From Minisyncoccota bacterium (GTDB taxonomy: Bacteria; Patescibacteriota; Minisyncoccia; Phycocordibacterales; UBA9973): DNA of 38,928 nucleotides. Of the stretch, positions 3,072 to 36,460 are shown one piece after another. The stretch lies in NCBI GenBank assembly GCA_041663725.1, contig JBAYME010000001.1, positions 1 to 38,928 on the forward strand. Reading direction: 5' to 3'. The notes under the pieces were generated by a model. That model was given only the letters and a program-made list of their open reading frames with translations. It made no database searches and had not been told where the DNA came from. Positions within the stretch are counted from its first letter, which is position 1, and every line of letters starts with the position of its first letter. A program made the translations under genes and the position numbers.

Positions 3072-3419
3072 ATGGAGTATTATTTGATAATGGTTAATCT
3101 AAAAGAATTACAAAAAGAAATAATGCGAAATAAATTGGAAAAGGGTTTCAATACTACAGATGTAGCCCTCGAATTTTGTAGAGCTCACGAAGAACTTTCT
3201 GAAGCATTTTGTAAGTTTAATAAAGGTGAAGACGGTGTGGCTGAAGAATTCGCAGACGTAGCTATATTTCTTTTGGGTATGGCTGAAATTTTAGGTTTTG
3301 ATTTAGAAAAAGAGCTATTATCTAAGGTAGAAAAAAATAAAAATCGTAAATATAAAAAAGAAAAATCCCCAGACGGGAAAGATGTTTTTATTAGAATTAA
3401 AACTGAGATAGACCCATAG
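3072..3419 (+). CDS. MazG-like nucleoside triphosphate pyrophosphohydrolase (small all-alpha type)
   Basis: 115 aa. Acidic metal-binding boxes HEELSEAF and AEEFADVAIFLLGMAEILGFDLE, then KNKNRKY. ATG 3090 is an alternative start. Confidence 0.7.
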   Translation: MEYYLIMVNLKELQKEIMRNKLEKGFNTTDVALEFCRAHEELSEAFCKFNKGEDGVAEEFADVAIFLLGMAEILGFDLEKELLSKVEKNKNRKYKKEKSPDGKDVFIRIKTEIDP

Positions 3420-3428
3420 TACATCAAA

Positions 3429-3458
3429 TAAAAATCTAAACTACAGTTTAGATTTTTA
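3429..3458. terminator. Bidirectional terminator between the convergent MazG-like and DHFR genes
   Basis: AAAAATCTAAAC-TACA-GTTTAGATTTTT, with A-run and T-run on either side. Confidence 0.8.
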
Positions 3459-3983
3459 TAGCCTAGTGTACTCCGTAAACTCTAAATCATATATATTTAA
3501 GTCATTTTTTTGAAGTTTTTCACCTTTTGTTTTTTTCCATTTTTTTTGATCAATTTCTGGAAAAAATACTTCAGCATCCGGAAAGTCACCATTAACATGG
3601 GTAATATAAAGTTTGTCTGCCATATTAATAAATAATTTATAAATCATTCCACCACCAATTACAAAAACCTCATCTTTTTCATTTGTAGTTTTTTTTAATA
3701 AATCCATTGCTTCATCTATCGAATAAAAAATTTCAGCACCAGGAGCTGTGAAAGAATCATCTTGAGTTAAAATTATATTTCTTCTGTTTGGCAGAAGGCG
3801 TCCAATTTGTTTACCATTTTCGTCACATGCTAAAGATTCATAAGTTTTTTGCCCCATAACAACTGCATGGCCTCTAGTTTTTTCTCTAAAATGTTTCATG
3901 TCAGCAGGAAGTGACCAAAGAAGATCATTCTTTTTTCCAAGTTCATTATTTTTTCCAATGGCTGCAATAATTGAAAGTATCAT
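3456..3983 (-). CDS. folA: Dihydrofolate reductase
   Basis: 175 aa. IIAAIGKNNELG, LPADMKHFREKT, VVMGQKTYESL and VIGGGMIY are DHFR motifs. Confidence 0.9.
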   Translation of the reverse strand: MILSIIAAIGKNNELGKKNDLLWSLPADMKHFREKTRGHAVVMGQKTYESLACDENGKQIGRLLPNRRNIILTQDDSFTAPGAEIFYSIDEAMDLLKKTTNEKDEVFVIGGGMIYKLFINMADKLYITHVNGDFPDAEVFFPEIDQKKWKKTKGEKLQKNDLNIYDLEFTEYTRL

Positions 3984-3990
3984 TTGAATT

Positions 3991-4839
3991 TTATTTTATA
4001 ATATCTAGTCCCGTAATAGGTTCACCTGGTTTAAAGTATGGAGCAAAAGATTGATAAATTTCATCCACTAATGTCTCATCCTTCTGTTCTGCTCGACTAA
4101 AAATATTTTTTGGTAGATTTGGAAAAATATTTAAGTGATTATTTTCTCTTTTAATTAATTCTTTTGCACCCTCATAGTGAGTATCATAAATATGAGCATT
4201 GGAAATAGAATGAGTATAAATTCCTGGTTTTACTCCTAGTTCTTGGGCTAGGGTACACATAAGTAAGGCAAAACCAAAGGTATCAAAAGGGCAGCCAAGC
4301 ATCATGTCATTTGAGCGAATTATGTTATGCAAACAAAGCCTGCCACCGATTATATTTACTGTAAAAGCAAAAGGACAAGGGGCATTTTTTTTATAAGTTG
4401 CTATTAGTCCTTTTCCATATAGTCCATCATCTGCTGGGTCCCATGTTACAATCACGCCTTGTCTTGAGTGAGGCTCTTCTTTTAAATGTTTTATTAATTG
4501 ACCAAGTTGGTCTCGTCCGAAATGATGGCGCCAACGATATCCATAAGCTGATGTTATGGTACCATTTGTTTCAATAAATTCATCCCACATTTTTGTATAT
4601 TTTCTTAAAAATTCTGTATCTTTATCTCCTGTGATAAACCAGACTTGTTCTGCAATTGGAGATTTGATGGGATTTTTACGAAGAGTTAAAATAGGGAAAC
4701 CATCTTTTTCTAAATCAATTTGGAAAGTTAAACCAGGCAATATTTTTATTTTATGGCCAGTTCTTTCATTTAATTCCTCAACCCCCTCTTCCATTATTTT
4801 TTTTATTAAATTTTTATAGATTGCGTCAAATGTTGTCAT
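3991..4839 (-). CDS. Thymidylate synthase (ThyA) family enzyme with Asp at the Asn177(E. coli)-equivalent; predicted dCMP-directed C5 methylase/hydroxymethylase
   Basis: 282 aa from ATG 4839 (the track ORF extends to 4893). Carries ERTG, YGYRWR, HSRQ, catalytic APC (Cys155), RSND, CPFD (Asp186, codon 4282-4284) and NAHIY. Aligns without gaps to the E. coli ThyA core. Confidence 0.85.
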   Translation of the reverse strand: MTTFDAIYKNLIKKIMEEGVEELNERTGHKIKILPGLTFQIDLEKDGFPILTLRKNPIKSPIAEQVWFITGDKDTEFLRKYTKMWDEFIETNGTITSAYGYRWRHHFGRDQLGQLIKHLKEEPHSRQGVIVTWDPADDGLYGKGLIATYKKNAPCPFAFTVNIIGGRLCLHNIIRSNDMMLGCPFDTFGFALLMCTLAQELGVKPGIYTHSISNAHIYDTHYEGAKELIKRENNHLNIFPNLPKNIFSRAEQKDETLVDEIYQSFAPYFKPGEPITGLDIIK

Positions 4840-4856
4840 ATAGTAAAGTATACAGC

Positions 4857-5381
4857 ATGGAAAATAAAAATCAAAAAGAGATAAAGTACCCATATTTACC
4901 AGCAGATAAAAATATATTTTATGTTGGTATGGATAATAATTTTATGGTAGAAGCAAAAGAAGCAGCCCGTTTATCTAATGATCAACAGCAACCAACTGGT
5001 GCAGTTATTGTTTGTGATAATAAAATAGTTTCTAGTTTTTCTAATAAAAACCCACTAACTAGCTCTTTTTTAATTAAATTACATAAAAAATATTGCATTC
5101 GTCATATGTTAAAAATTCCTTCTGGGCAAAAATACTGGGTTTGTCCTGGTTGTGCTAAAAACGAAAGTCATGCTGAGTCACGGGCGGCAAAGGATTTTAT
5201 AAAAAATAAAATTTCTTGCAAAAATCCCGATTTATATTTATGGGGTCATTGGTGGTGTTGTGATGTTTGCTGGAAAAACATGCTGAAGTTGCCAATTAAT
5301 AATGTTTATCTATTGGAGGATAGTGAAATATTATTTAACGCTAAAAATTCTAATAATATTTTAGGTAAACAGTTTGAATAA
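4857..5381 (+). CDS. Deoxycytidylate (dCMP) deaminase family protein
   Basis: Start taken at ATG 4857. FMVEAKEAARLS..PTGAVIV, zinc motif HAESRA plus CCDVC (PCxxC-equivalent), and an extra C/H cluster (CIRH..CPGC) like the second zinc site of dCMP deaminases. Confidence 0.8.
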   Translation: MENKNQKEIKYPYLPADKNIFYVGMDNNFMVEAKEAARLSNDQQQPTGAVIVCDNKIVSSFSNKNPLTSSFLIKLHKKYCIRHMLKIPSGQKYWVCPGCAKNESHAESRAAKDFIKNKISCKNPDLYLWGHWWCCDVCWKNMLKLPINNVYLLEDSEILFNAKNSNNILGKQFE

Positions 5382-6413: not shown

Positions 6414-9203
6414 ATGAATTTATTAAAAAATATTTTTAACAATCATTATAAACTTATTTTGTCTTTTGTTTTTTTGATTTTTTTTACTACTACATTAAGA
6501 GTAGTTGCAGTTTTACTTCCAGGTGCCCTTCCACCAGACGGCGGATATGATGCTGGTACTATTCTAGATCCAGGATGCGACCCAGAAGACCTAGATGGTA
6601 ATTGTATTGTTAAGGCAACTTCTGGAATATCAGAAGATCAAACGACACCACAGACTATCGGCGATAGTGTAAACAGACTATCCAAGCTCTGGGTTACAGA
6701 TATTAATGTCTCAAATCTAATTGATTTTAATAATACTGATTTAAATGTAAAAATCGGATATCAAGCAGGAAAAAATATAGCATTTGGTGCGCAACGTAAT
6801 ACTTTTATTGGTTACGAATCTGGTTTTTCTTCTGCCTTTGAGAATTCCAGTGCGGCAGACAACAATACAGCAATTGGATATCAAACTTTATATTCAAATG
6901 TATCAGGCGCCTATAATACAGCCAATGGTTATTATGCGCTTCATGGTAATACAACAGGTACTGAAAATACTGCAGTTGGAAATAGCGCTTTAAATAATAA
7001 TACAGTAGGAATTTATAATACTGCTACTGGAGCCGGCACACTTTATTCTAATGTTGATGGTTCTCAAAACACTGCAAATGGTGTTGCAGCGCTTCATGAT
7101 AATTCTTCTGGTAGTTATAATACTGCAAACGGTGTATCTTCTCTTTTTTATAATTTTTCAGGATCTCATAATTCTACAAATGGACACCAAGCACTTAATC
7201 AAAACAGAACAGGAAGTTATAATACTGCAAACGGAAGCAGGGCTCTTTATGAAAATACAATAGGTGAATATAATACTGCTAGTGGAGTAGATGCTGGACG
7301 TTACGTAACATCTGGTGGAGGCAACCAAACATCAACTCTTTCAGTTTATTATGGCTATAATACACGTGCCAGCTCTGATGGAAATACAAATGAAATAGTA
7401 ATTGGGTCCAATACATATGGAAATGGAAGTAATTCTATAACTCTTGGTAACGGAAGTATTACAAAAACAATATTAAGAGGGAATATTGGTGTCGGCACAA
7501 CTAGTCCGGCAGAGTTATTGTCCTTAGGATTAGAGGGCACAACTAGGGGAGTTCTTTCTTTTGCAGGTAGTACTTCAGGAAAAATTATAATTCAACCAGC
7601 GTCTATTACTGATAACTGGACAATGACATTACCTACTACTGATGGAGATGCTGGTCAAATTCTTTCTACTGATGGTTCTGGTGTGTTAAGTTGGATTTCA
7701 AATAGTGGAGTGCAAACTCCCTGGGTAAGTAATATTAACGCTGCAGGATTTACTCTTAATGGTAATAGTACTGCCAGTGGCAATTTAGTTTTAGATTCAA
7801 CTTCTAATGTTACAAAAGGTTATGTTTTACTTAACCCAACAGGAGGAAATGTCGGTATTGGTACATCAACACCAAATAATCTTTTACAAGTTGCAGATTT
7901 AATTGATTTTAATAATACAGACTCTAACACAAAATTAGGTTATTACGCTGGAAAAAATGTAGCAGTAGGAGCTAATTATAACACTTATGTTGGCTATGAA
8001 TCAGGTATGTCTAATGTTGTAAGTGATGTGTGGGCATATGGTAATACCGCCATGGGTTATCAATCATTATATTCAAACACAGGCGGAATGGAAAATGTCG
8101 CCATTGGTTATGGTTCACTTTATTCCAATACAACAGGAACACAAAACACCGCTATTGGTTTTCAATCTTTAACTTCAAATACAGCAGGTAGTGGTAATAT
8201 TGCTATTGGTTTTCAAGCAGATGTAGATGAAAGTGGTGGCTCATTAACTAATGCAATAGCAATTGGAGCTTACTCTACTGTTCAACAAAGTCATAGTTTA
8301 ATACTTGGGGCAGGTGGAACAAAAGTTGGAATTGGAACAACTGCACCGTCCACAATATTTGAGATTGGTTCCTATGATATAGGAGACGGATTGGCTGGCC
8401 CAGTAATAACACTAGGAATAAACAACAATGTTGCAAATTCCGGTGCAGGCTCAATTAATTTTTTAAGAAGAGATGGCACAGAAGGATATGTTTGGCAGGA
8501 TATGGCTGGTAAAATGAGAATAAATACAGTAGCTCCTACTACAGTCAACGATACTTCTGGAGATGTGATCGGTGAGCAATCTTCAACTCGAGAGACAAAA
8601 CAAGATATTGTTGATTTTACTGATTATAAAAATGCTCTTGCTCTAATAGTGGATGCACCATTACACTATTTCCGTTATAGAAAAGAAGTGGATGGTTATG
8701 GATCTGATTCTCCATTAGCTAAAAATCGTTTAGGTTTTATTGCTGATGAAGTAGATCCAATATTTATGTGGGATAATACAATTGATCAAGTATCTATAAA
8801 CGGACTCGTTATGGCTTCAATTAAAGAATTAAATATAAAAATAGAAGAACAAATTAAAGACATAAAAGAATTTAATCTAAGTGTAGAAAGATTGAGTAAT
8901 AAAATTGAAACAAAAATTCTTTGTGTTGGTAGTACTTGTGTTACAGAAGATCAATTCCTAGAAATAGTAAATAAAAATATTAATATTCCAACACCAACAC
9001 CAACACCAACACCAACACCAACAGAAACAGAAACAGAAATAGATCCAGAAATAGAAATACTCGAAGATATTATTCCGTTGGTAGTTCCAGAACCAGCTAC
9101 TATTATTGAATCAGACATAGTATTAATAACAACAGAATTAGAACCAGAATCAGAAGTAATATCTAGTGAAACACAATCAGTAGATATAGAAATAAATCCT
9201 TAA
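6414..9203 (+). CDS. Large tail-fibre/adhesin-like surface protein with C-terminal intramolecular chaperone autoprotease (peptidase S74-like) domain
   Basis: 929 aa. N-terminal hydrophobic anchor/signal. Two duplicated modules (LIDFNNTD..GY.AGKN) of NTA.G...L..N..G repeats. S74-like block SSTRETKQDIVDF...RLGFIADEV...INGLVMASIKEL, then coiled coil, (PT)6 and an acidic tail. Confidence 0.75.
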   Translation: MNLLKNIFNNHYKLILSFVFLIFFTTTLRVVAVLLPGALPPDGGYDAGTILDPGCDPEDLDGNCIVKATSGISEDQTTPQTIGDSVNRLSKLWVTDINVSNLIDFNNTDLNVKIGYQAGKNIAFGAQRNTFIGYESGFSSAFENSSAADNNTAIGYQTLYSNVSGAYNTANGYYALHGNTTGTENTAVGNSALNNNTVGIYNTATGAGTLYSNVDGSQNTANGVAALHDNSSGSYNTANGVSSLFYNFSGSHNSTNGHQALNQNRTGSYNTANGSRALYENTIGEYNTASGVDAGRYVTSGGGNQTSTLSVYYGYNTRASSDGNTNEIVIGSNTYGNGSNSITLGNGSITKTILRGNIGVGTTSPAELLSLGLEGTTRGVLSFAGSTSGKIIIQPASITDNWTMTLPTTDGDAGQILSTDGSGVLSWISNSGVQTPWVSNINAAGFTLNGNSTASGNLVLDSTSNVTKGYVLLNPTGGNVGIGTSTPNNLLQVADLIDFNNTDSNTKLGYYAGKNVAVGANYNTYVGYESGMSNVVSDVWAYGNTAMGYQSLYSNTGGMENVAIGYGSLYSNTTGTQNTAIGFQSLTSNTAGSGNIAIGFQADVDESGGSLTNAIAIGAYSTVQQSHSLILGAGGTKVGIGTTAPSTIFEIGSYDIGDGLAGPVITLGINNNVANSGAGSINFLRRDGTEGYVWQDMAGKMRINTVAPTTVNDTSGDVIGEQSSTRETKQDIVDFTDYKNALALIVDAPLHYFRYRKEVDGYGSDSPLAKNRLGFIADEVDPIFMWDNTIDQVSINGLVMASIKELNIKIEEQIKDIKEFNLSVERLSNKIETKILCVGSTCVTEDQFLEIVNKNINIPTPTPTPTPTPTETETEIDPEIEILEDIIPLVVPEPATIIESDIVLITTELEPESEVISSETQSVDIEINP
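8580..8850 (+). other. S74-like intramolecular chaperone/auto-processing domain inside the fibre ORF
   Basis: Ser724 and Lys729 lie five residues apart (S-T-R-E-T-K). Downstream are LGFIADEV and GLVMASIKEL, as in endosialidase/tail-spike C-terminal chaperone domains. Confidence 0.6.
8988..9023 (+). repeat. Hexanucleotide microsatellite (CCAACA)x6 encoding (PT)6
   Basis: Six perfect tandem units, followed by GAAACA x2 (ETET). Confidence 0.95.
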
Positions 9204-9211
9204 ATAAATTT

Positions 9212-11041
9212 ATGAAAAATTTTTTTAAATCTACATACTTATTTTTAATAATCTCTATTTTTTTAATTGTTGTTTTTTCTTTTTTTGTTAAAAATATTGA
9301 AGCAAGCAATATTGGAACTATTCCTGATTCTTCTCTTTGTACAGAAGGTACATCTTGTGCAGAATTAATGCAAGACAATAGTAAGATAAATTTTGGTTGT
9401 ACTAATTGTGAAGTTCAAGTTGAAGATACTTTTTTGTCTGGTTATGCATGGGGGAGTAATATTGGTTGGATTAATTTAAAGCCTACACAATATGGTGGAG
9501 TAATAAATAATACTGGTGGTGATGATGGGGTTTTGTCTGGTTATGCATGGGGGCAAAATGCTGGATGGATAAATTTTAAGCCAACTTATTCCGGGGTAGA
9601 AGGTGTTACTATTGACACTAATAACGGTGAGTTTAATGGATATGCTTGGTCACAGAATTATGGTTGGATTCATTTCGATTGTAGTATTGCAGGAAAGTCA
9701 GCTAATAAATGTGTAACTACGACATGGAGACCGTCACATACTACAACTGGTGGAAGTGGAGGTGGTGGAGAAAATTGTAGTAACGGAGCAACAAATTATC
9801 CAACCTGTACATTTAATTGTACAAACGGAGCAACAAACTATCCTACTTGTACAATAACTGAAATTGAAGATGAGACATGTACAAACGGAGCAACAAACTA
9901 TCCTACTTGTACAATAACTGAAATTGAAGATGAGACATGCGAAGAGACAGGAAACTGTCCTCAAGAAGTAACTTGTGATTCTTTGGGTACTTGTATAACA
10001 GCTCCAGTTACTATTATCGAAAATATAATCAATAGTATAAATACACCATTAATTAATTTTTTAAATCAAACATTTTCACCACCAGAAATTGAAAAAATAA
10101 AAACAGGCTTAAAGGTTACTACTGCAACTTCAGCAATCATTGCTACTGGAATTACAATAGGCACAGCTTTACTCTTGAGTCCTCTTGCCACACCAGAGAT
10201 TTTGCTTTTACCTTTGCGTTTATGGGCATTATTACTTACTGGATTAGGTTTAAGAAAAAAAATAAAACCATGGGGAACAGTTTATGATTCTGTAACTAAA
10301 CAGCCACTTGATCCAGTATATGTAACATTATTTAATCTTGATGGAGCTGAAGTATCTTCTTCTATAACAGACCTAGATGGACGTTATGGGTTTTTAGTTC
10401 CACCTGGTGTTTATAAAGTTGTTCCAGGAAAGACTAATTATATATTTCCATCTGCAAAATTAGCTAGTCACATAAGTGATGAACTTTACCCAGATTTATA
10501 TTTTGGAGATTATTTACATATTGCAGAAGGTGAGACCATTGCAAAGAATATTCCTATGGATGCCATAAATTTTGATTGGAATGAATTTGCAAAAAACAAG
10601 AAGCAGATTTTTAATTTTTACTCTAAAAAAGAAGTAATGTTTGCACGTATTTCATCGTTCTTTTTTGTAGCTGGTGCCATATTAGCAGTTCTTGCTTTGT
10701 TTATTGCTCCTGAGCCTTATAATTTAATAATTTTTGGTTTATACGTTTTATTATTTATATTAAGAAGAGTTACCTTTAAGAAAAAAGCGCGAGGAAAATT
10801 GATAGATAAAAATGGAGACCCATTATCTTTTGCTTTAATACGTGTATTTGGAGCAAATACTAACGTTGAGATAGCTCACAAGGTAGCAGATAAAATGGGA
10901 CGTTATTTCTGTTTAATTCCAAATGGACAATATTATGTACAGGTTGAAAATAAAAATCCTGACGAATCTTATTCAGTTGTTTATAAATCAGAAACTCTCG
11001 AAATTAAAAATGGTATTTTAAATAAAGTGTTTAATGTATAA
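9212..11041 (+). CDS. Signal-peptide GW-repeat / NGATNYPTCT-repeat membrane protein with two carboxypeptidase-regulatory-like beta-sandwich domains
   Basis: 609 aa. Three GYAW(G/S)xN.GWI(N/H)(L/F) repeats, Gly run, three NGATNYPTCT repeats, hydrophobic helices around aa 300-345 and 490-525. DLDGRYGFLVPPGVYKV and DKMGRYFCLIPNGQYYVQVE resemble CarboxypepD_reg domains. Confidence 0.6.
   Translation: MKNFFKSTYLFLIISIFLIVVFSFFVKNIEASNIGTIPDSSLCTEGTSCAELMQDNSKINFGCTNCEVQVEDTFLSGYAWGSNIGWINLKPTQYGGVINNTGGDDGVLSGYAWGQNAGWINFKPTYSGVEGVTIDTNNGEFNGYAWSQNYGWIHFDCSIAGKSANKCVTTTWRPSHTTTGGSGGGGENCSNGATNYPTCTFNCTNGATNYPTCTITEIEDETCTNGATNYPTCTITEIEDETCEETGNCPQEVTCDSLGTCITAPVTIIENIINSINTPLINFLNQTFSPPEIEKIKTGLKVTTATSAIIATGITIGTALLLSPLATPEILLLPLRLWALLLTGLGLRKKIKPWGTVYDSVTKQPLDPVYVTLFNLDGAEVSSSITDLDGRYGFLVPPGVYKVVPGKTNYIFPSAKLASHISDELYPDLYFGDYLHIAEGETIAKNIPMDAINFDWNEFAKNKKQIFNFYSKKEVMFARISSFFFVAGAILAVLALFIAPEPYNLIIFGLYVLLFILRRVTFKKKARGKLIDKNGDPLSFALIRVFGANTNVEIAHKVADKMGRYFCLIPNGQYYVQVENKNPDESYSVVYKSETLEIKNGILNKVFNV
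9818..9937 (+). repeat. Perfect 60-bp tandem duplication (2 copies) inside the GW-repeat ORF
   Basis: 9818-9877 equals 9878-9937 (CTNGATNYPTCTITEIEDET x2). A degenerate third copy lies upstream (~9776-9817). Confidence 0.95.
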
Positions 11042-27372: not shown

Positions 27373-28644
27373 ATGCAAAATTTTTGGAGTAAAATAAAAT
27401 TAACTTGGACAGATGTTTCACTAAGAAAGAAAATACTTTTTGTGCTTGGCGCCCTAATTGTTTTTAGATTACTATCTTCAATTCCAATTCCAGGTATTGA
27501 TGCTGTGCAACTTAATCGTTTTCTTTCCAACAATCAATTTTTTGGTATTTTGAATATTTTTTCTGGTGGTGGTCTTTCCAATCTTTCAATAATTATGTTA
27601 GGAGTTGGTCCATATATTACTGGTTCTATCATTATGCAATTACTTACTATAATGGTACCAGCTTTGAAAAAGTTGTATCACGAAGAAGGAGAATTGGGAA
27701 GAAAAAAGTTTTCTCAATATTCAAGACTAATAACAGTTCCATTAGCTGCAATACAAGGTTTCAGCTTATTGGCTATTCTTCAATCTCAAAATATTTTAGT
27801 TAATTTAACTGTATTTGATCGTGTAACAAACCTGGTTGTAGTAATTGCTGGTTCAATTTTAATTATGTGGATTGGAGAATTGATGTCTGAATTCGGTATT
27901 GGTAATGGTGTATCGCTTTTGATTTTTGCGGGTATTGTTTCTCAAATCCCATCTGAGGTTGGTCAGTTATTGTTTACCTTTGATGTTTCTCAAATTCCTC
28001 TTATGCTTTTATTTATTGCTATGGGAGCTTTAGTTGTAGCTGGTGTGGTAGTAGTTACAGAAGCAGAACGCCCTATCCCAGTTACTTATGCTAAACAAGT
28101 TCGTGGATCAAAGATGTATGGTGGTGGATCTACTTATTTACCACTTAGAGTAAACCAAGCTGGAGTTATTCCAATTATTTTTGCTCTTTCAATTTTACTC
28201 TTTCCTCAAATGATAGGTAATTTTATGGCTGGTTCTAGTAATGCTATAGTTTTAAAAATTTCACATGTATTAGCTTCTTTTTCACAAACCTCATGGTTAT
28301 ATGCAGTCCTTTATTTTATTTTAGTTTTTCTATTCACTTATTTTTATACAGCAGTTACATTTGACCCAGAAGCTCTTTCAACTAATTTACAAAAGAATGG
28401 TGCTTTTATTCCAGGTATCCGACCAGGTCCATCAACCTCTGCTTATATATCAAAAGTATTAGGACGAATTACATTACTCGGTGCTGTATTCTTAGGTTTT
28501 ATTGCAATACTGCCTTTGATTATGCGTGCTGTTACTGGAATTACAGCTATTGCTATGGGTGGTACCGCACTTCTTATCGTTGTTTCTGTTTTACTTGATT
28601 TAATCAAAAAAATAGACGCACAGATCTCAATGCGAGAATATTAA
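27373..28644 (+). CDS. secY: Preprotein translocase subunit SecY
   Basis: 423 aa, ~10 TM. IPIPGID, GVGPYITGSIIMQLL, GIGNGVSLLIFAGI. Confidence 0.97.
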   Translation: MQNFWSKIKLTWTDVSLRKKILFVLGALIVFRLLSSIPIPGIDAVQLNRFLSNNQFFGILNIFSGGGLSNLSIIMLGVGPYITGSIIMQLLTIMVPALKKLYHEEGELGRKKFSQYSRLITVPLAAIQGFSLLAILQSQNILVNLTVFDRVTNLVVVIAGSILIMWIGELMSEFGIGNGVSLLIFAGIVSQIPSEVGQLLFTFDVSQIPLMLLFIAMGALVVAGVVVVTEAERPIPVTYAKQVRGSKMYGGGSTYLPLRVNQAGVIPIIFALSILLFPQMIGNFMAGSSNAIVLKISHVLASFSQTSWLYAVLYFILVFLFTYFYTAVTFDPEALSTNLQKNGAFIPGIRPGPSTSAYISKVLGRITLLGAVFLGFIAILPLIMRAVTGITAIAMGGTALLIVVSVLLDLIKKIDAQISMREY

Positions 28645-29207
28645 TTTCTCAACCACTTTTTGTATTCTGATACAATAATTTGAACAACCTCATTGAGGTT
28701 GTTTTTATTTGTATCTATGATTAAGTCAAATTGGTTTTTATTTGTATTATCTATTTTATATAAATCCCAATATCTTCTTTGTTCACTCTCAAAACGTTTT
28801 GTCATTTTTTCTAAAACTTCCGCACTTGTTTTTACTTGTTCACTTTGCTCACGAAGTTTATCTGCTTTGATGCTATTTAATATTCTTTCTTTTGCTATTT
28901 CAGTTGGTAAATCTAAATAAATCTTAAAAGATTTTGGTATCCAGTGATAAGCGGTCCGTGAATCTACAACTATTTTATTTTTATTATTTAAGTCTCGTAA
29001 TTTTTGGTCTGTCATTTCATCTATTTTTGGATCAATTTCAGCCCTAGTGTTTGTTTCATTTACTGATAAGCCTAACTCAAGGCCCACTTGTCGAAAGAAA
29101 TCCCCAGAAGAAAAATGTTTAAATCCTAGAATTTCAGCTACCTTTTTTGCAGTGCTCGATTTTCCACTTCCTAAGCTCCCACAAATAGTTATAATTTCCT
29201 TTTTCAT
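28641..29207 (-). CDS. cmk: Cytidylate kinase, archaeal-type (Cytidylate_kin2-like)
   Basis: 188 aa. P-loop ICGSLGSGKSST, SSGDFFR, DSRTAYHW, ESEQRRYWDLYKID. Convergent with secY, with stop codons overlapping in TTAA. Confidence 0.75.
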   Translation of the reverse strand: MKKEIITICGSLGSGKSSTAKKVAEILGFKHFSSGDFFRQVGLELGLSVNETNTRAEIDPKIDEMTDQKLRDLNNKNKIVVDSRTAYHWIPKSFKIYLDLPTEIAKERILNSIKADKLREQSEQVKTSAEVLEKMTKRFESEQRRYWDLYKIDNTNKNQFDLIIDTNKNNLNEVVQIIVSEYKKWLRN

Positions 29208-29280: not shown

Positions 29281-29868
29281 ATGGAAACACAAACTTTTGT
29301 ATTTTATGGTCAAGTTGGCTCAGGTAAGGGAACCCAAGTAAAGCTTCTAACAGAATATTTAAAGAACAAAGACAATAAAGAGGTTGTTTATGGTGGAACA
29401 GGGGATGAGTTTAGAAAAATATTAACTTCCGATAGTTTTACTGCTAATTTAATTAAAGATTCTATAAACAAAGGAGAGCTTCAACCTGATTTTTTAACTA
29501 ATTCACTTTTTGCTAATATATTAATTTCATCTTTAACTAATGAAAAACATTTAATTGCTGATGGTTACCCTCGTACCGTTTTGCAGTCAGAAAATTTTGA
29601 ACAAATGATGAAATTTTTTAAGAGAGATAATATAAAGATAATTTATATTAAATTAACTGAAGAAGAAGCAATGAAAAGAAATCTCTTGCGAGCTAGGGTT
29701 GACGACACAGAAGAAGGTCTTAAAAAAAGATTTAATGAATTTACCAATAATGTAGTACCTTCTATGAATTATTTTTCAGAAAAGGATGGTTATGAAATAA
29801 TAACTATTAATGGAGAGCAGTCGATTGAAGATGTACATAAAGAGATTATTAGTAAATTAGCTTTCTAG
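29281..29868 (+). CDS. adk: Adenylate kinase family nucleoside-monophosphate kinase (short LID)
   Basis: 195 aa. GQVGSGKGTQ P-loop, ADGYPRT, RVDD. Canonical position after secY. Confidence 0.8.
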   Translation: METQTFVFYGQVGSGKGTQVKLLTEYLKNKDNKEVVYGGTGDEFRKILTSDSFTANLIKDSINKGELQPDFLTNSLFANILISSLTNEKHLIADGYPRTVLQSENFEQMMKFFKRDNIKIIYIKLTEEEAMKRNLLRARVDDTEEGLKKRFNEFTNNVVPSMNYFSEKDGYEIITINGEQSIEDVHKEIISKLAF

Positions 29869-29910: not shown

Positions 29911-30588
29911 ATGGAAACAATAATAATTTCACTTGGCGGATCACTCATCATACCTGATCAGGTAGATGTTGAATTTCTTAAATCTTTTAAGTCTCTTATT
30001 CTTTCTCATGTTGAGCAGGGTAAAAAATTTATAATTATAACTGGAGGCGGAAAGATCTGCAGAAAATATCAAGAAGCAGCTAAAGAAATTTCTAATCCTA
30101 ATCATGATGATTTAGATTGGATAGGTATCGCTTCTCTGAAATTAAATGCTGAACTTTTGAGGGTAATTTTTGGAGAATATGCCCAAGAAAAAGTAATATT
30201 TAATTTATCTCTACCTTTTGTTTTTGAAAAATCGATTGTAATTGGAGCAGCCTTTGAACCAGGTCAAAGTACTGATTGGGATGCAGTGTTGGGTGCAAAA
30301 AATGTTGGGGCAAAAAAAATTATCAATCTTTCAAATATCGATTATGTTTATGATGTTGACCCAAGATTAAATCCTGATGCTAAAAAAATTGAGAATATCT
30401 CTTGGTCAGAATATAGAAAATTAATTCCTACTGAGTGGAATCCAGGTCTTAATTCTCCCTTTGATCCAATTGCTTCTAAGATGGCAGAGGAAGAGGGTAT
30501 AGAAGTAGCTATAATGAATGGAAAGCCACTAGATAATTTAGCTAAATATTTAAATGGTGAAAAGTTCTCTGGTACGATAATTAAATAA
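29911..30588 (+). CDS. pyrH: Archaeal-type UMP kinase (amino-acid kinase fold)
   Basis: 225 aa. IISLGGS, IITGGGKICRKY, EPGQSTDWDA, NIDYVYDVDP. Confidence 0.7.
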   Translation: METIIISLGGSLIIPDQVDVEFLKSFKSLILSHVEQGKKFIIITGGGKICRKYQEAAKEISNPNHDDLDWIGIASLKLNAELLRVIFGEYAQEKVIFNLSLPFVFEKSIVIGAAFEPGQSTDWDAVLGAKNVGAKKIINLSNIDYVYDVDPRLNPDAKKIENISWSEYRKLIPTEWNPGLNSPFDPIASKMAEEEGIEVAIMNGKPLDNLAKYLNGEKFSGTIIK

Positions 30589-30616: not shown

Positions 30617-32338
30617 ATGTTTAAATATATGGAACATAATGGAGAAAAAAGAAATTGTCAGAATTGTAAGAGTCAGTTTTTAATTGAACAAGAGGATTTT
30701 AATTTTTACGAGAAGATAAAAGTACCAGCACCGACATGGTGTCCGGAATGTAGAATGACCAGGAGATTGGCCTTTGGAAATGCTTGGGGTGTGTATTTTC
30801 GTAATTGTGATAAATGTGGAGAAAAAACATTAACAATGTTTAGGCCAGAGAACCAATTGAAAGTTTTTTGTGATACCTGTTGGTGGGCAGATGATTGGGA
30901 TGGTACAGAGTATGGAGTAGATTACGATCCAAATGAAAATTTTTTAGAACAATGGAAAAATTTAAGATATAGTACTCCTCATTTTGCCAAAGATTCACTA
31001 CATGCAACTTTAAAAAATTGTGAATATACAAATGCTATAGCTTTTTCAAAAAATTGTTATATGTCTTTTTGGGTTGATTATTCTGAATCAATTTTTTATT
31101 CATCATTTTTAAATAATGTTAAAGATAGCATTGATGTATTTAGAGTTTATAAAAGTGATTTATGTTATGAATCTGTTGGAATAGGACATTCAAGTAAAAT
31201 TTATTTTTCCAGCGAATGTGATAATTGTGTAGACGTATATTTTTCTAGAAATTGTTATGGATGTATGAATTGTTTTGGTTGTGTTAATTTAAGGGGGAAA
31301 AATTACATGATTTTTAATCAGCAATATTCCAAAGAAGATTATTTTGAAAAATTAAATGAATTTCAAATTAATACAAGCAAGGGATTAGATCAAATGCTTA
31401 AAATATCTAAAGAATTTTGGCATGAATTACCATATCGAGAATATACTGGAAATTCTTTAAACTTAAATGTTTCTGGTGATTATATTTATGAGTCAAAAAA
31501 TGCTAAGAATTGTTATATGTGTAGTGGAATAGAAGATTCTAAATATTGTCAGTTTATTTCAGTTCCAAAGGCAGAAAATTGTTTCGATTATTATGGATGG
31601 GGCAATGCGGCCAGTTTAATATATGAATGTGCTACCTCTGGGGAAGGAATTAGTAGATTAAAATTTTGTTTTGGTATGTTTGCAAATGGATTAGACTCTG
31701 AATATTGTGGTTGGTGCGTAGGATCAAAAAATAATTTTGGTTGTTCAAATTTAAAAAGAAAACAATATTGTATTTTAAATAAACAATACAGTAAAGACGA
31801 ATATGAAAAATTAAAAAAACGAATTATTGAAGATATGGATAAAAATCCATACAAAGATAAAAAGGGAAGATTTTTTAAATATGGAGAATTTTTTCCTATA
31901 GAGTTTTCTCCATTTCCATATGAAGATAGTAATGCAAGTAGGTTCATTGTAAAAAATAAAGAGGAAGCCTTAAGGGAGGGGTATAATTGGGAAGATAAAA
32001 TAGAGAATTTTTATAAAAAAACTATCGAAAGTAAAGATATACCGGAAACAATTGAAGATACAAATGAAAGTATATTAAAGGAAGTTATTGAATGCATCTC
32101 TTGTGGTAGTGGCTATAAAATAACTCAAGGTGAATTAAATTTATATAAAAAATTAAATGTTCCCATTCCTAGAAAATGTTCCAAATGTAGAGAGGCTAGA
32201 AGATTTTCTTTAATTAATAAACCAAAATCTTATAATGTTAATTGCGCAAAGTGTGACGAGAAAATAATTATAATGTATGACCCAAAATTAAACCAAATTA
32301 TTTACTGTGTTAAATGCTACCAACAAGAATTTATTTAA
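30617..32338 (+). CDS. Cys-rich protein of unknown function: terminal paired zinc ribbons flanking an internally duplicated Cys-ladder core
   Basis: 573 aa. N-terminal CQNC..F.FYEKIKVPAPTWCPECR + CDKCG..VFCDTCWW, mirrored at the C-terminus by CISCG..LYKKLNVPIPRKCSKCR + CAKCD..IYCVKCY. Two core halves each end in C.GC.NL..K.Y.I.N.QYSK.(D/E)Y. Confidence 0.6.
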   Translation: MFKYMEHNGEKRNCQNCKSQFLIEQEDFNFYEKIKVPAPTWCPECRMTRRLAFGNAWGVYFRNCDKCGEKTLTMFRPENQLKVFCDTCWWADDWDGTEYGVDYDPNENFLEQWKNLRYSTPHFAKDSLHATLKNCEYTNAIAFSKNCYMSFWVDYSESIFYSSFLNNVKDSIDVFRVYKSDLCYESVGIGHSSKIYFSSECDNCVDVYFSRNCYGCMNCFGCVNLRGKNYMIFNQQYSKEDYFEKLNEFQINTSKGLDQMLKISKEFWHELPYREYTGNSLNLNVSGDYIYESKNAKNCYMCSGIEDSKYCQFISVPKAENCFDYYGWGNAASLIYECATSGEGISRLKFCFGMFANGLDSEYCGWCVGSKNNFGCSNLKRKQYCILNKQYSKDEYEKLKKRIIEDMDKNPYKDKKGRFFKYGEFFPIEFSPFPYEDSNASRFIVKNKEEALREGYNWEDKIENFYKKTIESKDIPETIEDTNESILKEVIECISCGSGYKITQGELNLYKKLNVPIPRKCSKCREARRFSLINKPKSYNVNCAKCDEKIIIMYDPKLNQIIYCVKCYQQEFI

Positions 32339-33152: not shown

Positions 33153-35918
33153 ATGTTTGGAAAAAATTCATTTTTTAAGGAAATGCCAAAATTTAAGAAT
33201 CCTGAAGAGGAACTTAATTATTTGCGTGCACATGTTGCAAAAAAAGAACAAGAACTTATTACTAAGGGTCATTTTGAAAATACCAATGAAGAAGCCGCTC
33301 AAGATGTAATTGCTAAATATAAAGAGGTTCCAGTTAAGGATGTAGTTCACCCAGATTCTATATTAGATAAAAAAGAAACAGAAGGTATTGTTTTAAAATT
33401 AAAACCTGAAGCCCATGACAGGGTGATGGAAGAACTTTTGGGTATTGTTATGACTGAAGGAATAAGGAATGCTTTGTCTGTCGTTGAGACGATGAACAAT
33501 CCTCATGTGGATGATGATTTTTGTCGTTTATTAATTCAATATTTAAAAACTGGTGAAATTATTCCTAATATAAAAGAGGGTAGTCCTCTTTATAAATCCT
33601 TAAATATAACTTTATTTGAAATTACATTACCACCACCACAAGATGAAGGTGAAAAACAAAAAGGATTTAAGGAATTTATTAGTGCGATGGAGCAATTTTA
33701 TGCCGGTATGCAATCTATTTCAGAGGATAAAAATAATGAAAAAGAAAATTATTTTACACTAGAGATTGCTTTGGGCAGTGAAAATGATGAGGTTGTGATT
33801 TACGCAGCTATACCAAATAAACATATTTCTCTTTTTGAAAAACAAGTTTTAGCTTTTTATCATGATGCTAAAATAAAAGAAGTGCCCGATGATTATAATA
33901 TTTTTAATGAAAAGGGTGGTTCAGCTGGAGCTTATGCAAATTTTTCTGAAAAAGCAGTTTTACCTATTAAAACATATGACAATATTGAGCATGACCCGAT
34001 GAATATGATTTTGAATGTTTTTTCTAAGTTGAAAACGGAAGGTGAGGGTGCTGCTATCCAAATTATGGTAGCTCCAGCCGGTAGTAAATATACTGATCAA
34101 TTTCATCTTATACTAGATGATGTAAAAGATGGATATTCAGTGAAATATGCTGCAGATAATTTTTATAAGTTTAATAAGGCATTTTTAAAAGCTTCTAAAG
34201 AATTATTTTTTGGTAAAAAAGAAGAAAAAGAAAAAAAAGAAAAATACATGAAGGGGCGCAAAGCCGTTGATCAAGGTGCTGCAGAAAAAATTACCAATAA
34301 ATTAAAGAGCACCATCATGAAGGCCAATATCAGGGTGGTTGCTTCAGCTGAAAATAAAGAAAGAGCTGAATCTATTATTCAGGAAATCGAGTCTTCTTTT
34401 AATCAATTTAGTGAAGCAGCTAGTAATTCAATTGTTTTTGAAAAAATTTCTGGAAGTAATTTAAAAAAGTTTTTTCATGATTATTCTTATAGAATTTTTT
34501 CTGATGATAAAATTTTACCAATGAATTTAAAAGAGCTGTCTTCTATTTTTCATTTTCCTGTTGGCATATCTGGTCAAGGACAATTAAAAGAAGCCAAGTC
34601 TGGTATTGCCCCAGTGCCAATTGAAATGGGCAAAGAAGGTATATTATTGGGAATAAATAATTATAGAGGAAGAGAAACTGAAATTCATATGGCTCGAGAA
34701 GATCGAATGCGACATATGTATGTTATTGGGCAGACTGGAACAGGTAAGACTAATATTATGCTAAATATGATCACACAAGATATAAAAAATGGTGATGGTT
34801 GTTGTTATATTGATCCACACGGTACCGATATTCAAACAATTCTTTCTAGAATTCCAAAAGAGCGTATAGATGATGTTATTTATTTTGATCCAGCCTATAC
34901 TGCACGACCAATGGGCTTAAACATGCTCGAATTTGATCCAAAATATCCAGAACAGAAAACATTTGTAGTAAATGAACTTATGGGTATTTTTAATAAACTT
35001 TTTGATATGAAGGTTGGTGGAGGAGCAATGTTTGAACAATATTTTAAGAATAGTGCCTTTTTGGTAATGGAAGATCCAGAGTCAGGTGGTACCTTACTTG
35101 AAATATCGCGTGTTTTATCTGATAAGGAATTTCGTGATATGAAATTATCTAAATGTAAAAATCCAATTATTAAGCAATTTTGGGCTGCGGCAGAACAAAC
35201 CACCGGTGATCAAGGTCTTGCCAATTTTGTTCCTTATATTACTTCTAAATTTGATAATTTTATATCCAACGATATTATGCGTCCAGTAGTTTTACAGGAA
35301 AAATCAGTTTTTAATTTTAGAAAAATGATGGATGAGAAAAAAATTCTCTTAGTGAATCTTTCAAAGGGACGTTTAGGTGATATTAATGCTAACCTTATTG
35401 GTTTAGTTCTTGTGGGTAAAATTCAAATGGCAGCTCTTTCTCGTGTAGATATGTTTGGACAAAAAATGAATGATTTTTATCTTTATATCGATGAGTTTCA
35501 AAATGTAACAACAGATTCTATCGCTTCTATTTTATCTGAAGCTAGAAAATATCGTTTATCCTTAAATGTTGCTCACCAGTATATTTCTCAACTAGAAGAG
35601 GGGATAAAAAATGCTGTTTTTGGTAATGTCGGTTCAATGGCCGTTTTTCGAGTAAGTTCAGAGGATGCAACATTTTTAGAAAAACGTTTTTTACCAACAT
35701 TTAAGGCTACAGATATTATGAAATTAGATAATTATAATGCTTATATGAGTATGTTGGTAAATGGTCAACCAACAAAGCCATTTAATATGCACACCATTGC
35801 TCCAGAAAAAGGAAATCCTGAGATGGTGGAGAGCTTAAAGGAACTTTCATATCTTAAATATGGACGAGACCGTGATGAAGTTGAGGCTGAAATTATGGCT
35901 AAATATGAGAGACAATAA
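33153..35918 (+). CDS. TraD/TraG/VirD4-like coupling-protein ATPase without TM anchor, fused to a ~500-aa N-terminal region of unknown function
   Basis: 921 aa. Walker A GQTGTGKT (34728-34751), CCYIDPHG, Walker B LYIDEFQN (35481-35504), ARKYRLSLNVAHQYISQL (TraG-D C-terminal type). Confidence 0.7.
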   Translation: MFGKNSFFKEMPKFKNPEEELNYLRAHVAKKEQELITKGHFENTNEEAAQDVIAKYKEVPVKDVVHPDSILDKKETEGIVLKLKPEAHDRVMEELLGIVMTEGIRNALSVVETMNNPHVDDDFCRLLIQYLKTGEIIPNIKEGSPLYKSLNITLFEITLPPPQDEGEKQKGFKEFISAMEQFYAGMQSISEDKNNEKENYFTLEIALGSENDEVVIYAAIPNKHISLFEKQVLAFYHDAKIKEVPDDYNIFNEKGGSAGAYANFSEKAVLPIKTYDNIEHDPMNMILNVFSKLKTEGEGAAIQIMVAPAGSKYTDQFHLILDDVKDGYSVKYAADNFYKFNKAFLKASKELFFGKKEEKEKKEKYMKGRKAVDQGAAEKITNKLKSTIMKANIRVVASAENKERAESIIQEIESSFNQFSEAASNSIVFEKISGSNLKKFFHDYSYRIFSDDKILPMNLKELSSIFHFPVGISGQGQLKEAKSGIAPVPIEMGKEGILLGINNYRGRETEIHMAREDRMRHMYVIGQTGTGKTNIMLNMITQDIKNGDGCCYIDPHGTDIQTILSRIPKERIDDVIYFDPAYTARPMGLNMLEFDPKYPEQKTFVVNELMGIFNKLFDMKVGGGAMFEQYFKNSAFLVMEDPESGGTLLEISRVLSDKEFRDMKLSKCKNPIIKQFWAAAEQTTGDQGLANFVPYITSKFDNFISNDIMRPVVLQEKSVFNFRKMMDEKKILLVNLSKGRLGDINANLIGLVLVGKIQMAALSRVDMFGQKMNDFYLYIDEFQNVTTDSIASILSEARKYRLSLNVAHQYISQLEEGIKNAVFGNVGSMAVFRVSSEDATFLEKRFLPTFKATDIMKLDNYNAYMSMLVNGQPTKPFNMHTIAPEKGNPEMVESLKELSYLKYGRDRDEVEAEIMAKYERQ

Positions 35919-35983
35919 TAATTTTGAATTTTAGTAAAAATCTGTTAGGATTTGTATATTATTATTTTAATTTAAATAAATTT

Positions 35984-36460
35984 ATGAGCAAACTAAATTA
36001 CGAGAAATCTTTGATTATAATAAAACCAGACGCAGTACAGAGAAATTTAATAGGAGAAATTATTACTCGTTTTGAAAAAAAAGGTTTAAAAATTATTGGC
36101 TTAAAGATGATGAATGTAGGGGATGCATTACTCGAGGAACATTATGCACACATAAAAGATAAGCCTTTTTTTGGTGGTATAAGAAATTTTATGAAAGCGT
36201 GTCCAGTTATAGTTATGGCTATTGAGGGGATAAATACAGTTTCATCCGTTAGATTGTTGGTTGGTCCAACTAAAGCATGGGAAGCTAACGCTGGAACAAT
36301 ACGAGGTGATTTTTCTCTTTCTACTCAATCAAACATAGTACATGCTTCAGACAGTATAGAAAACGGAGAGATTGAGGTAAGAAGATTTTTCCTAGAAGAA
36401 GAACTTTTTGAGTATCAAAAAATTGACACAGATTTTATTTACGCAGAACATAAGGAATAA
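35984..36460 (+). CDS. ndk: Nucleoside diphosphate kinase
   Basis: Start at ATG 35984 (MSKLNYEKSLIIIKPDAV). YAHIKDKPFF, GTIRGDF, NIVHASDS (catalytic His). Confidence 0.93.
   Translation: MSKLNYEKSLIIIKPDAVQRNLIGEIITRFEKKGLKIIGLKMMNVGDALLEEHYAHIKDKPFFGGIRNFMKACPVIVMAIEGINTVSSVRLLVGPTKAWEANAGTIRGDFSLSTQSNIVHASDSIENGEIEVRRFFLEEELFEYQKIDTDFIYAEHKE

Follow-up and report, generated by a model that had tools for sequence, protein, structure and literature searches.

Thymidylate synthesis is taken to pass through deoxyuridine monophosphate (dUMP) in all cells, by way of either ThyA or ThyX. Amongst phages, ThyA homologs with an aspartate in place of Asn177 (family positions follow Escherichia coli ThyA) are known to make 5-methyl-deoxycytidine monophosphate (5-methyl-dCMP) and to be linked to deaminases and pyrophosphatases (PMC8670742; bioRxiv 10.1101/2024.12.05.627091). 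In the DNA of Xanthomonas phage Xp12, 5-methylcytosine (5mC) replaces all of the cytosine, and the Xp12 ThyA homolog, along with five of seven tested metagenomic Asp177 homologs, made 5-methyl-deoxycytidine (5-methyl-dC) in E. coli (bioRxiv 10.1101/2024.12.05.627091). The same study records dCMP-deaminase genes within 3 kb of the ThyA homolog at 70% on cytosine-modified contigs compared to 6% on unmodified contigs, reports that such phage deaminases prefer 5mC substrates, and proposes that they supply thymidine triphosphate (dTTP) while bypassing the dUMP-dependent synthase. Cellular homologs of the Asp type are known only as ribonucleotide hydroxymethylases of antibiotic pathways, MilA and BcmA (PMC5175136). 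Here, an Asp-type ThyA-family gene is described from a 38,928-nucleotide stretch of a Minisyncoccota bacterium genome (GCA_041663725.1, contig JBAYME010000001.1, positions 1–38,928; the whole stretch is referred to as the window), where it is clustered with genes for a dihydrofolate reductase (DHFR), a deaminase, and a MazG-like pyrophosphatase (Table 1). The original prediction, made from the letters of the window, was of a dCMP methylase or hydroxymethylase. On balance, the comparisons below favor a dCMP-methylating enzyme that works with the neighboring deaminase. What would be new is to find a familiar chemistry built into the chromosomes of a large bacterial lineage as a conserved module, together with partner enzymes that are not orthologous to those of the phages; a literature search found no paper tying the Candidate Phyla Radiation (CPR), Patescibacteria, or Parcubacteria to dCMP methylation or to this enzyme class.

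A ThyA homolog with an aspartate at the base-reading position

The protein matches Pfam Thymidylat_synt (PF00303; E = 2.4e-55, 188 bits) and has the hallmarks of the superfamily: the cysteine of the P-C motif, the R-S-x-D box, and the H-x-Y ribose-binding pair (H216/Y218). Its N-terminus, MTTFD, is the start common to the close homologs, and as these all begin in this way a longer open reading frame from 4893 (300 residues) was rejected as the gene start. An exact-sequence look-up found no identical sequence on record, and the database names of the protein are thymidylate synthase throughout. An AlphaFold2 (AF2) model has the ThyA fold (mean predicted local distance difference test [pLDDT] 77, predicted template modeling [TM] score 0.82), with pLDDT <50 at residues 98–108 and 133–156 (a clade-specific insertion ahead of the catalytic cysteine). 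The top 50 Foldseek matches of this model are all thymidylate synthases (E ~1e-21), and the best are canonical ThyAs (TM ~0.7) because, to our knowledge, no structure of an Xp12-type enzyme has been solved.

Table 1. Coordinates of the ThyA-like gene, its diagnostic residues, and the adjoining genes in the window
Feature	Position	Strand	Basis
ThyA-family enzyme, 282 residues, Asp177-type	3991–4839	-	Pfam PF00303, alignments, Xp12-like C5 shell, AF2 model
Asp186 codon GAT (E. coli Asn177 base-reading position)	4282–4284	-	codon reading, phmmer and MAFFT alignments
N-A-P-C-P: Asn152 (Leu143), catalytic Cys155 (Cys146), Pro156 (His147)	4372–4386	-	
R175-S176-N177-D178 box (E. coli R166-S167-C168-D169)	4306–4317	-	
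Dihydrofolate reductase	3456–3983	-	Pfam DHFR_1, E = 4.9e-51
CDA-fold zinc deaminase, dCMP-deaminase-like, divergent	4857–5381	+	Pfam dCMP_cyt_deam_1 (PF00383), E = 4.6e-9
Small MazG-like all-alpha NTP pyrophosphatase, EExxE...EExxD motifs	3072–3419	+	Pfam MazG-like, E = 1.2e-6; PHROG 3301 pyrophosphatase, E = 1e-13
Spacer of 17 nucleotides between the divergent ThyA-like and deaminase start codons	4840–4856		

That Asp186 occupies the Asn177 position, the central claim of the original prediction, was borne out by codon reading, by phmmer alignment to the solved canonical ThyAs 3ix6, 6auj, and 4h0r (the query's ‘cpfdtf’ lies over ‘vpfnia’, free of gaps from the PC motif to H-x-Y), and by MAFFT alignment with E. 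coli ThyA, which gives the same equivalence. The catalytic Cys155 (TGT, 4377–4375), the Arg-Ser pair, the Asp169 equivalent, and the His/Tyr pair are kept, as had been stated, and the cysteine lies in N-A-P-C-P with Asn152 (AAT, 4386–4384) and Pro156 (CCT, 4374–4372), where the Xp12 enzyme reads K-N-V-P-C-P. The aligned block is without gaps as claimed, but extends over residues 153–218, not 153–216, against E. coli 144–209, a trivial slip. Asp186 is not a product of chance or of sequencing error, because an aspartate is present in all 80 related loci examined (the best 80 of 393 stretches encoding relatives, one genome per GTDB species, from which all of the conservation counts are taken).

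Further non-canonical residues accompany Asp186, with Pro156 for His147, Asn152 for Leu143, and an isoleucine for Gln165, such that neither the Asn177 nor the His147 and Leu143 required of a canonical ThyA are found. Across the 12 residues within 6 Å of C5 (the C5 shell; Table 2), the query is identical to the Xp12 enzyme at every diagnostic position and differs from the T4 gp42 hydroxymethylase at positions 143 and 147. These positions covary amongst 139 representative homologs: all 19 sequences with Asn177 have Leu143 and His147, while the 120 sequences with Asp177 mostly have Asn143 (n = 103) and Pro147 (n = 99).

Table 2. Residues of the C5 shell in the query and in reference enzymes
Protein	C5 shell
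Query	W Y K N C P I S N D G D
Xp12	W Y K N C P L S S D G D
ZQG1	W Y K N C P I S S D G D
T4 gp42	W Y S D C T M S N D G D
E. coli ThyA	W Y A L C H Q S C D G N

Published rules relate several of these residues to substrate and product. Replacement of Asn177 by Asp is a switch between dCMP and dUMP (Hardy & Nalivaika 1992; Liu & Santi 1992, as cited in PMC8670742 and PMC13326640); as cited in the same two papers, canonical thymidylate synthases turn to dCMP methylation with N177D or N229D, and T4 dCMP hydroxymethylase changes in the opposite sense with D179N, in agreement with the shift in preference on which the original prediction relied. The two positions that best distinguish cytosine-modified contigs are 177 and 147 (PMC8670742). 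At position 143 a hydrophobic residue goes with a methyl product and Asp or Glu with a hydroxymethyl product (T4, MilA), and replacement of Asp169 by Asn marks the 5-hydroxy-dCMP synthases (PMC13326640), while Ala at the Ser167 position goes with the ribonucleotide preference of MilA and BcmA (PMC5175136). The aspartate at 177 matches the rule for dCMP preference, and the non-acidic residue at 143 (Asn152) and Asp178 match the rule for a methyl product. With this match to the Asp177 rule and the C5-shell match to the tested Xp12 enzyme, the prediction of a dCMP-directed ThyA homolog gains support, and dCMP is quite probably the preferred substrate.

Relationship to phage and canonical enzymes

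When 50,697 phage records were searched with tblastn, 4087 held a ThyA homolog, and the best phage matches were Xp12 and its relatives A1432, ZQG1, DoCa10, PaMx74, and AXL1 (33–41% identity); pairwise BLASTP gave 193 bits for ZQG1 and 186 bits for Xp12 compared to 114 bits for E. coli ThyA and 38.5 bits for T4 gp42. Amongst 1.84 billion cluster representatives searched exhaustively with HMMER, those of the first ~95 matches that cover position 177 all have Asp there, mostly with Pro147, and the first canonical His147/Asn177 proteins appear at rank 97. The phylogeny proposed as a check on the prediction, a neighbor-joining (NJ) tree without bootstrap, places the query within a large Asp-type assemblage that holds Xp12 and ZQG1, with most canonical ThyAs in a separate group and T4 gp42 as a long outgroup branch. 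Against the NCBIfam thymidylate-synthase models the query falls below the cut-off for seven of eight matching models, including all five of PRK01827 (best score 151.7, cut-off 327), and above it for TIGR03284.

Xp12, ZQG1, PaMx74, and AXL1 (Bradleyvirinae) belong to the same superfamily as the query and have the same Asn143, Pro147, Asp169, and Asp177. Xp12 and ZQG1 in addition have 10–11 of the 12 C5-shell residues, the insertion preceding the PC motif, and an extended C-terminal tail in common with it. The query differs from the Xp12 enzyme in falling in another sub-clade of the NJ tree and in being encoded on a bacterial core chromosome rather than by a phage. Canonical ThyAs (E. coli, Brucella 3ix6, Elizabethkingia 6auj) resemble the query in fold, C-terminal tail, and DHFR linkage, and their catalytic Cys, Arg21, Glu58, Trp80, Tyr94, Arg166, Ser167, Asp169, His207, and Tyr209 are all kept; they differ in having Asn177, His147, Leu143, and Gln165, and at Arg127, which is Gln in the query.

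A conserved chromosomal module

The DHFR gene, whose linkage to the ThyA-like gene had been predicted, starts 7 nucleotides past the ThyA-like stop codon on the same strand, and the two genes are presumably on one transcript; the MazG-like gene is convergent with the DHFR gene. The ThyA-like and deaminase genes start 17 nucleotides apart on opposite strands, and therefore the promoter of each must lie inside the other gene. A promoter-like TTGATT-16-TATACT on the minus strand (4847–4874) ends 7 nucleotides before the ThyA-like ATG and would give a leaderless messenger RNA, though it is a consensus match only and such sites are no commoner than in shuffles.

The deaminase, which on its own is only a weak match to PF00383 (Table 1), carries the catalytic motifs H105-A-E107 and C135/C138 (C-x-x-C), which are conserved in its family. 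A profile of this family finds the dCMP deaminases 4p9c and 2hvv first in the PDB (~1e-7), and the AF2 model (pLDDT 74) has modest Foldseek matches (top five, TM 0.41–0.48) to the dCMP deaminases of S. mutans, cyanophage S-TIM5, PBCV-1 (bifunctional for dCMP and dCTP), T4, and human. The family numbers 1263 proteins at E ≤ 1e-3, of which all the named members are from Patescibacteria, and it appears to be restricted to that group; there was no match in PHROG, and tblastn of the phage records gave one weak match only. Also invariant in the family are His76, Cys80, and Cys96-Pro-Gly-Cys99 in an insertion before the HAE motif, and the His76/Cys80/Cys96/Cys99 cluster is probably a second, structural zinc site.

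Related loci come almost entirely from metagenome-assembled genomes of Patescibacteria, with record titles naming Nomurabacteria, Paceibacterota/Paceibacteria, Minisyncoccia, Taylorbacteria, and Parcubacteria; about a third of the records are labelled ‘uncultured Candidatus Saccharibacteria’, a label suspected to be generic. Homologs at 67–89% identity carry the names Paceibacterota, Nomurabacteria, and Minisyncoccia. The signature Asn143/Cys146/Pro147/Asp169/Asp177 (N-C-P-D-D) is present in 78 of the 80 loci and N-C-L-D-D in the other two. A divergent, adjacent deaminase gene is found in 77 loci, with the ThyA gene at a contig end in the remaining three, and a DHFR gene (67/80, usually directly downstream), a MazG-like gene (57/80), and L11 within 5 kb (46/80) are also frequent. 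In the window, FKBP, SIMPL, NusG, and L11 are encoded upstream of the cluster, and L28, an M50 peptidase, S12, S7, EF-G, EF-Tu, the S10/spc region, SecY, Adk, Map, and Ndk downstream. The order in a Nomurabacteria locus (L003) is the same: SecE-NusG-L11-x-MazG-DHFR-ThyA, then deaminase-helicase-L28-M50-S12-S7-EF-G. The ThyA-like module is a vertically inherited trait of the core genome and not a prophage.

The nearest relatives outside the CPR are three sister ThyA(Asp) clusters (L004, L008, and L009; 44–55% ThyA identity), each with a deaminase of the CPR type beside ThyA (L004 751–1227, L008 1475–1960, L009 3420–3881; 27–35% identity). These contigs are short and carry small unannotated genes, a helicase, HNH, and dUTPase, which gives them a phage-like look, and ThyA and the deaminase seem to be exchanged together between CPR bacteria and phages, perhaps their own. 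Two loci filed as viral in IMG/VR (L090 and L091) encode ThyAs 59–62% identical to the query with the N-C-P-D-D signature. Natural fusions occur amongst the representative homologs, joining ThyA(Asp) to a deaminase (P0146) or to a pyrophosphatase of the PRA-PH/MazG type (P0164); another Asp-type ThyA is fused to an HNH endonuclease (P0156), and P0124 has an unassigned N-terminal extension of 190 residues.

Xp12 and ZQG1 have a hydrolase, ThyA(Asp), dCMP deaminase, and DHFR in a row, the same four functional classes as in the window, but the deaminase and pyrophosphatase are not detectably orthologous to those of the CPR. Transfer of the CPR module as a block from Xp12 or ZQG1 was rejected on this ground, and the two modules are analogous. 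The phage deaminases of the mSCD-B5 type are likewise members of PF00383 linked to an Asp177 ThyA and a MazG/PRA-PH pyrophosphatase, while the CPR deaminase belongs to a distinct, divergent family with the extra invariant His/Cys cluster. Functional coupling of the ThyA-like enzyme and the deaminase is supported by the Xp12/ZQG1 gene order, the fusions, the sister clusters, and the published phage data (bioRxiv 10.1101/2024.12.05.627091).

A predicted route to thymidylate

From the signature, the homology, and the conserved neighborhood we infer the substrate, the product, the substrate of the deaminase, and the role of the MazG-like protein. The supply of dCMP would come from dCTP or dCDP, possibly by release through the MazG-like pyrophosphatase, which might alternatively clear 5-methyl-dCTP. 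The Asp-type ThyA would take dCMP rather than dUMP, transfer the methylene of 5,10-methylene-tetrahydrofolate (THF) to C5, and reduce it with the hydride of the cofactor, yielding 5-methyl-dCMP and dihydrofolate (DHF) by the same chemistry as the Xp12 enzyme, and the presumably co-transcribed DHFR would regenerate THF. The deaminase would then convert 5-methyl-dCMP to thymidine monophosphate (dTMP), or possibly 5-methyl-dCTP to dTTP; for deamination at the triphosphate level, the preceding phosphorylation could fall to the cytidylate-kinase-like and Ndk enzymes encoded in the window. Together the pair would constitute a ‘methylate first, deaminate second’ thymidylate route that avoids dUMP.

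Two genes that the original prediction had missed, for the adjacent deaminase and the MazG-like protein, change the biological reading: the enzyme probably makes a thymidylate precursor, which need not be destined for modified DNA, and the CPR module probably has a biosynthetic rather than an anti-restriction role. If Asp186 excludes dUMP, a deaminase making dUMP would feed nothing, yet the two genes are invariably linked; both would be needed if the deaminase acted on the methylated nucleotide. That the deaminase turns the methylated product into a thymidine nucleotide is slightly favored. Neither tblastn with E. coli ThyA, nor a ThyX query, nor a ThyX motif scan found a second thymidylate synthase in the 38.9-kb window. 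A bolder version, in which 5-methyl-deoxycytidine nucleotides are the sole source of thymidine nucleotides in the Nomurabacteria/Paceibacterota lineage and its relatives, with no dUMP intermediate, and which at its strongest has some or all of the chromosomal cytosine as 5mC installed from the pool, is put forward tentatively, with the odds somewhat on the other side.

Alternative explanations

The alternative that survives best, though unlikely, is a dUMP-dependent thymidylate synthase of the ordinary kind, with a deaminase that makes dUMP and an aspartate, perhaps protonated, that is a lineage-specific means of reading uracil. Several observations weigh against the methylate-first route. A protonated aspartate could still read uracil, and a dCMP deaminase beside ThyA and DHFR is exactly what the classical sequence of dCMP to dUMP to dTMP predicts. 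The TIGR03284 thymidylate-synthase equivalog is passed (125.8, cut-off 108.35), and the database names, the Foldseek ranking, and the CPR papers, which take thyA as the source of dTMP, fit the ordinary enzyme as well. Identity to the tested Xp12 enzyme is only 35–37%. Two of the seven tested metagenomic Asp177 homologs gave no 5-methyl-dC, and mSCD-B5, the one 5mC-selective deaminase characterized, acts on 5-methyl-dCTP and not on monophosphates (bioRxiv 10.1101/2024.12.05.627091). By sequence, orthology of the deaminase to its Xp12/ZQG1 counterparts was not detectable and neither was any relationship of the MazG-like protein to the ZQG1 pyrophosphohydrolase, and because of this the substrate preference of the phage partners is not transferable by homology. 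What argues against an ordinary synthase is that Asp177 is an established switch that covaries with positions 143 and 147 as in the tested Xp12 methylase, that the PRK01827 scores are far under their cut-off, and that the protein is nearer to the Xp12-type enzymes than to any canonical ThyA.

Less likely again is that 5-methyl-dCMP is phosphorylated and built into the chromosome, replacing much or all of the cytosine as in Xp12, with the deaminase diverting part of the pool. The full Xp12-like functional set of pyrophosphatase, ThyA(Asp), deaminase, and DHFR is present, as are a cytidylate-kinase-like gene and NDK, and the 5-methyl-dCTP activity of the characterized partner deaminase implies a triphosphate pool; the AT-rich composition (~32% GC) is weakly relevant. 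This explanation nevertheless needs more assumptions than a pure thymidylate route, its partners are not orthologous to those of the phages, and the literature search found no report of an unusual modification in CPR DNA. We also know of no cellular organism that replaces a base at the level of the nucleotide pool.

It is very improbable that the enzyme is a hydroxymethylase or hydroxylase of dCMP or CMP (the T4 gp42, MilA, or RB69 type), giving 5-hydroxymethyl- or 5-hydroxy-cytosine nucleotides; given dCMP as the substrate, it is highly likely that the product is methyl rather than hydroxymethyl. DHF arises only from reductive methylation, while hydroxymethylation releases THF, and a linked DHFR would be purposeless beside a hydroxymethylase. 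The query has 64 residues after H-x-Y, compared to 61 in Xp12, 55 in E. coli, and 28 in T4, and this long C-terminal tail with clade-invariant residues and the tightly linked DHFR point to reductive methylation. Asp177 and the RSND box are common to the query and T4 gp42, and gp42 indeed has NMRSNDVVFGFRND, as given in the original prediction, but the resemblance is superficial (38 bits, 20% identity); gp42 has Asp at 143 (Asp145) and Thr at 147, lies as an outgroup in the tree, and makes a product that needs no DHFR. An enzyme like T4 gp42 was ruled out by residue 143, tail length, and similarity, and a 5-hydroxy-dCMP synthase (RB69 gp48 or DLP3 gp80 type) by Asp178, which is kept here and in 80 of 80 relatives, the D169N mark being absent. 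MilA and BcmA, though cellular Asp-type homologs themselves, prefer ribonucleotides (Ala replaces Ser167), are acidic at position 143, and give a hydroxymethyl product, and a CMP hydroxymethylase of this type was ruled out by Ser176 (with Asn152 at position 143). The preference for a methylase over a hydroxymethylase, already voiced in the original prediction, is upheld by Asn at 143, the kept Asp169 equivalent, the tail, the DHFR, and the similarity to Xp12.

The chance is negligible that the gene is cargo of a phage or prophage, or lies on a phage contig binned in error, and has no part in the metabolism of the bacterium. Prophage and mis-binning were ruled out by synteny with ribosomal-protein genes: although the closest relatives outside the CPR are on short contigs that look phage-like and relatives occur on four IMG/VR contigs, the gene is flanked, in the window as in its relatives, by L11/NusG/SecE on one side and L28/S12/S7/EF-G on the other, and the gene order is syntenic across 60–90% identical homologs in the 80 species-level genomes inspected out of 393 matches.

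Implications

If correct, the methylate-first route would be a third, order-swapped path to thymidylate in a major branch of the CPR, of a kind hitherto proposed for a few phages only. The annotation ‘thyA’ would be wrong in hundreds of genomes, metabolic reconstructions of the CPR would change, and the question would arise whether the cells avoid the problems of dUTP and uracil or carry pool-derived 5mC in their DNA. It would also point to an evolutionary link between CPR bacteria and the DNA-modification modules of phages, and it would add a divergent family of candidates to the 5mC-acting deaminases, enzymes that already serve methylation sequencing. In its strongest form, it would be the first cell with pool-level 5mC in its chromosome.

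Other features of the window

Several nucleotide kinase genes are encoded further downstream. A cytidylate-kinase-like gene (28641–29207, minus strand) lies on the opposite strand between secY and adk, and adk, a UMP-kinase-like gene, and ndk lie close by (29281–29868, 29911–30588, and 35924–36460, respectively, all on the plus strand); Ndk is extended at its N-terminus, and the adk product is also a weak thymidylate-kinase match. The genes cmk, gmk, and tmk are poorly represented in Parcubacteria (PMC4508563), which would fit deamination at the triphosphate level.

Amongst the remaining genes, all on the plus strand, one between map and ndk (33153–35918) encodes a 921-residue protein with weak matches to TrwB/TraG/DUF87 (a VirD4-like coupling ATPase), and another (30617–32338) a very Cys-rich protein of 573 residues with many CxxC motifs, for which Pfam gives only a treble-clef zinc finger, present at each end. 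Closer to the ThyA-like cluster, a 929-residue protein (6414–9203) contains many short Asn/Thr/Gly-rich repeats (such as ‘YNTANG’ and ‘QNTAIG’) and a (PT)n/Glu-rich tail and is followed by a large protein with a CarboxypepD_reg domain (9212–11041), and both are probably surface proteins.

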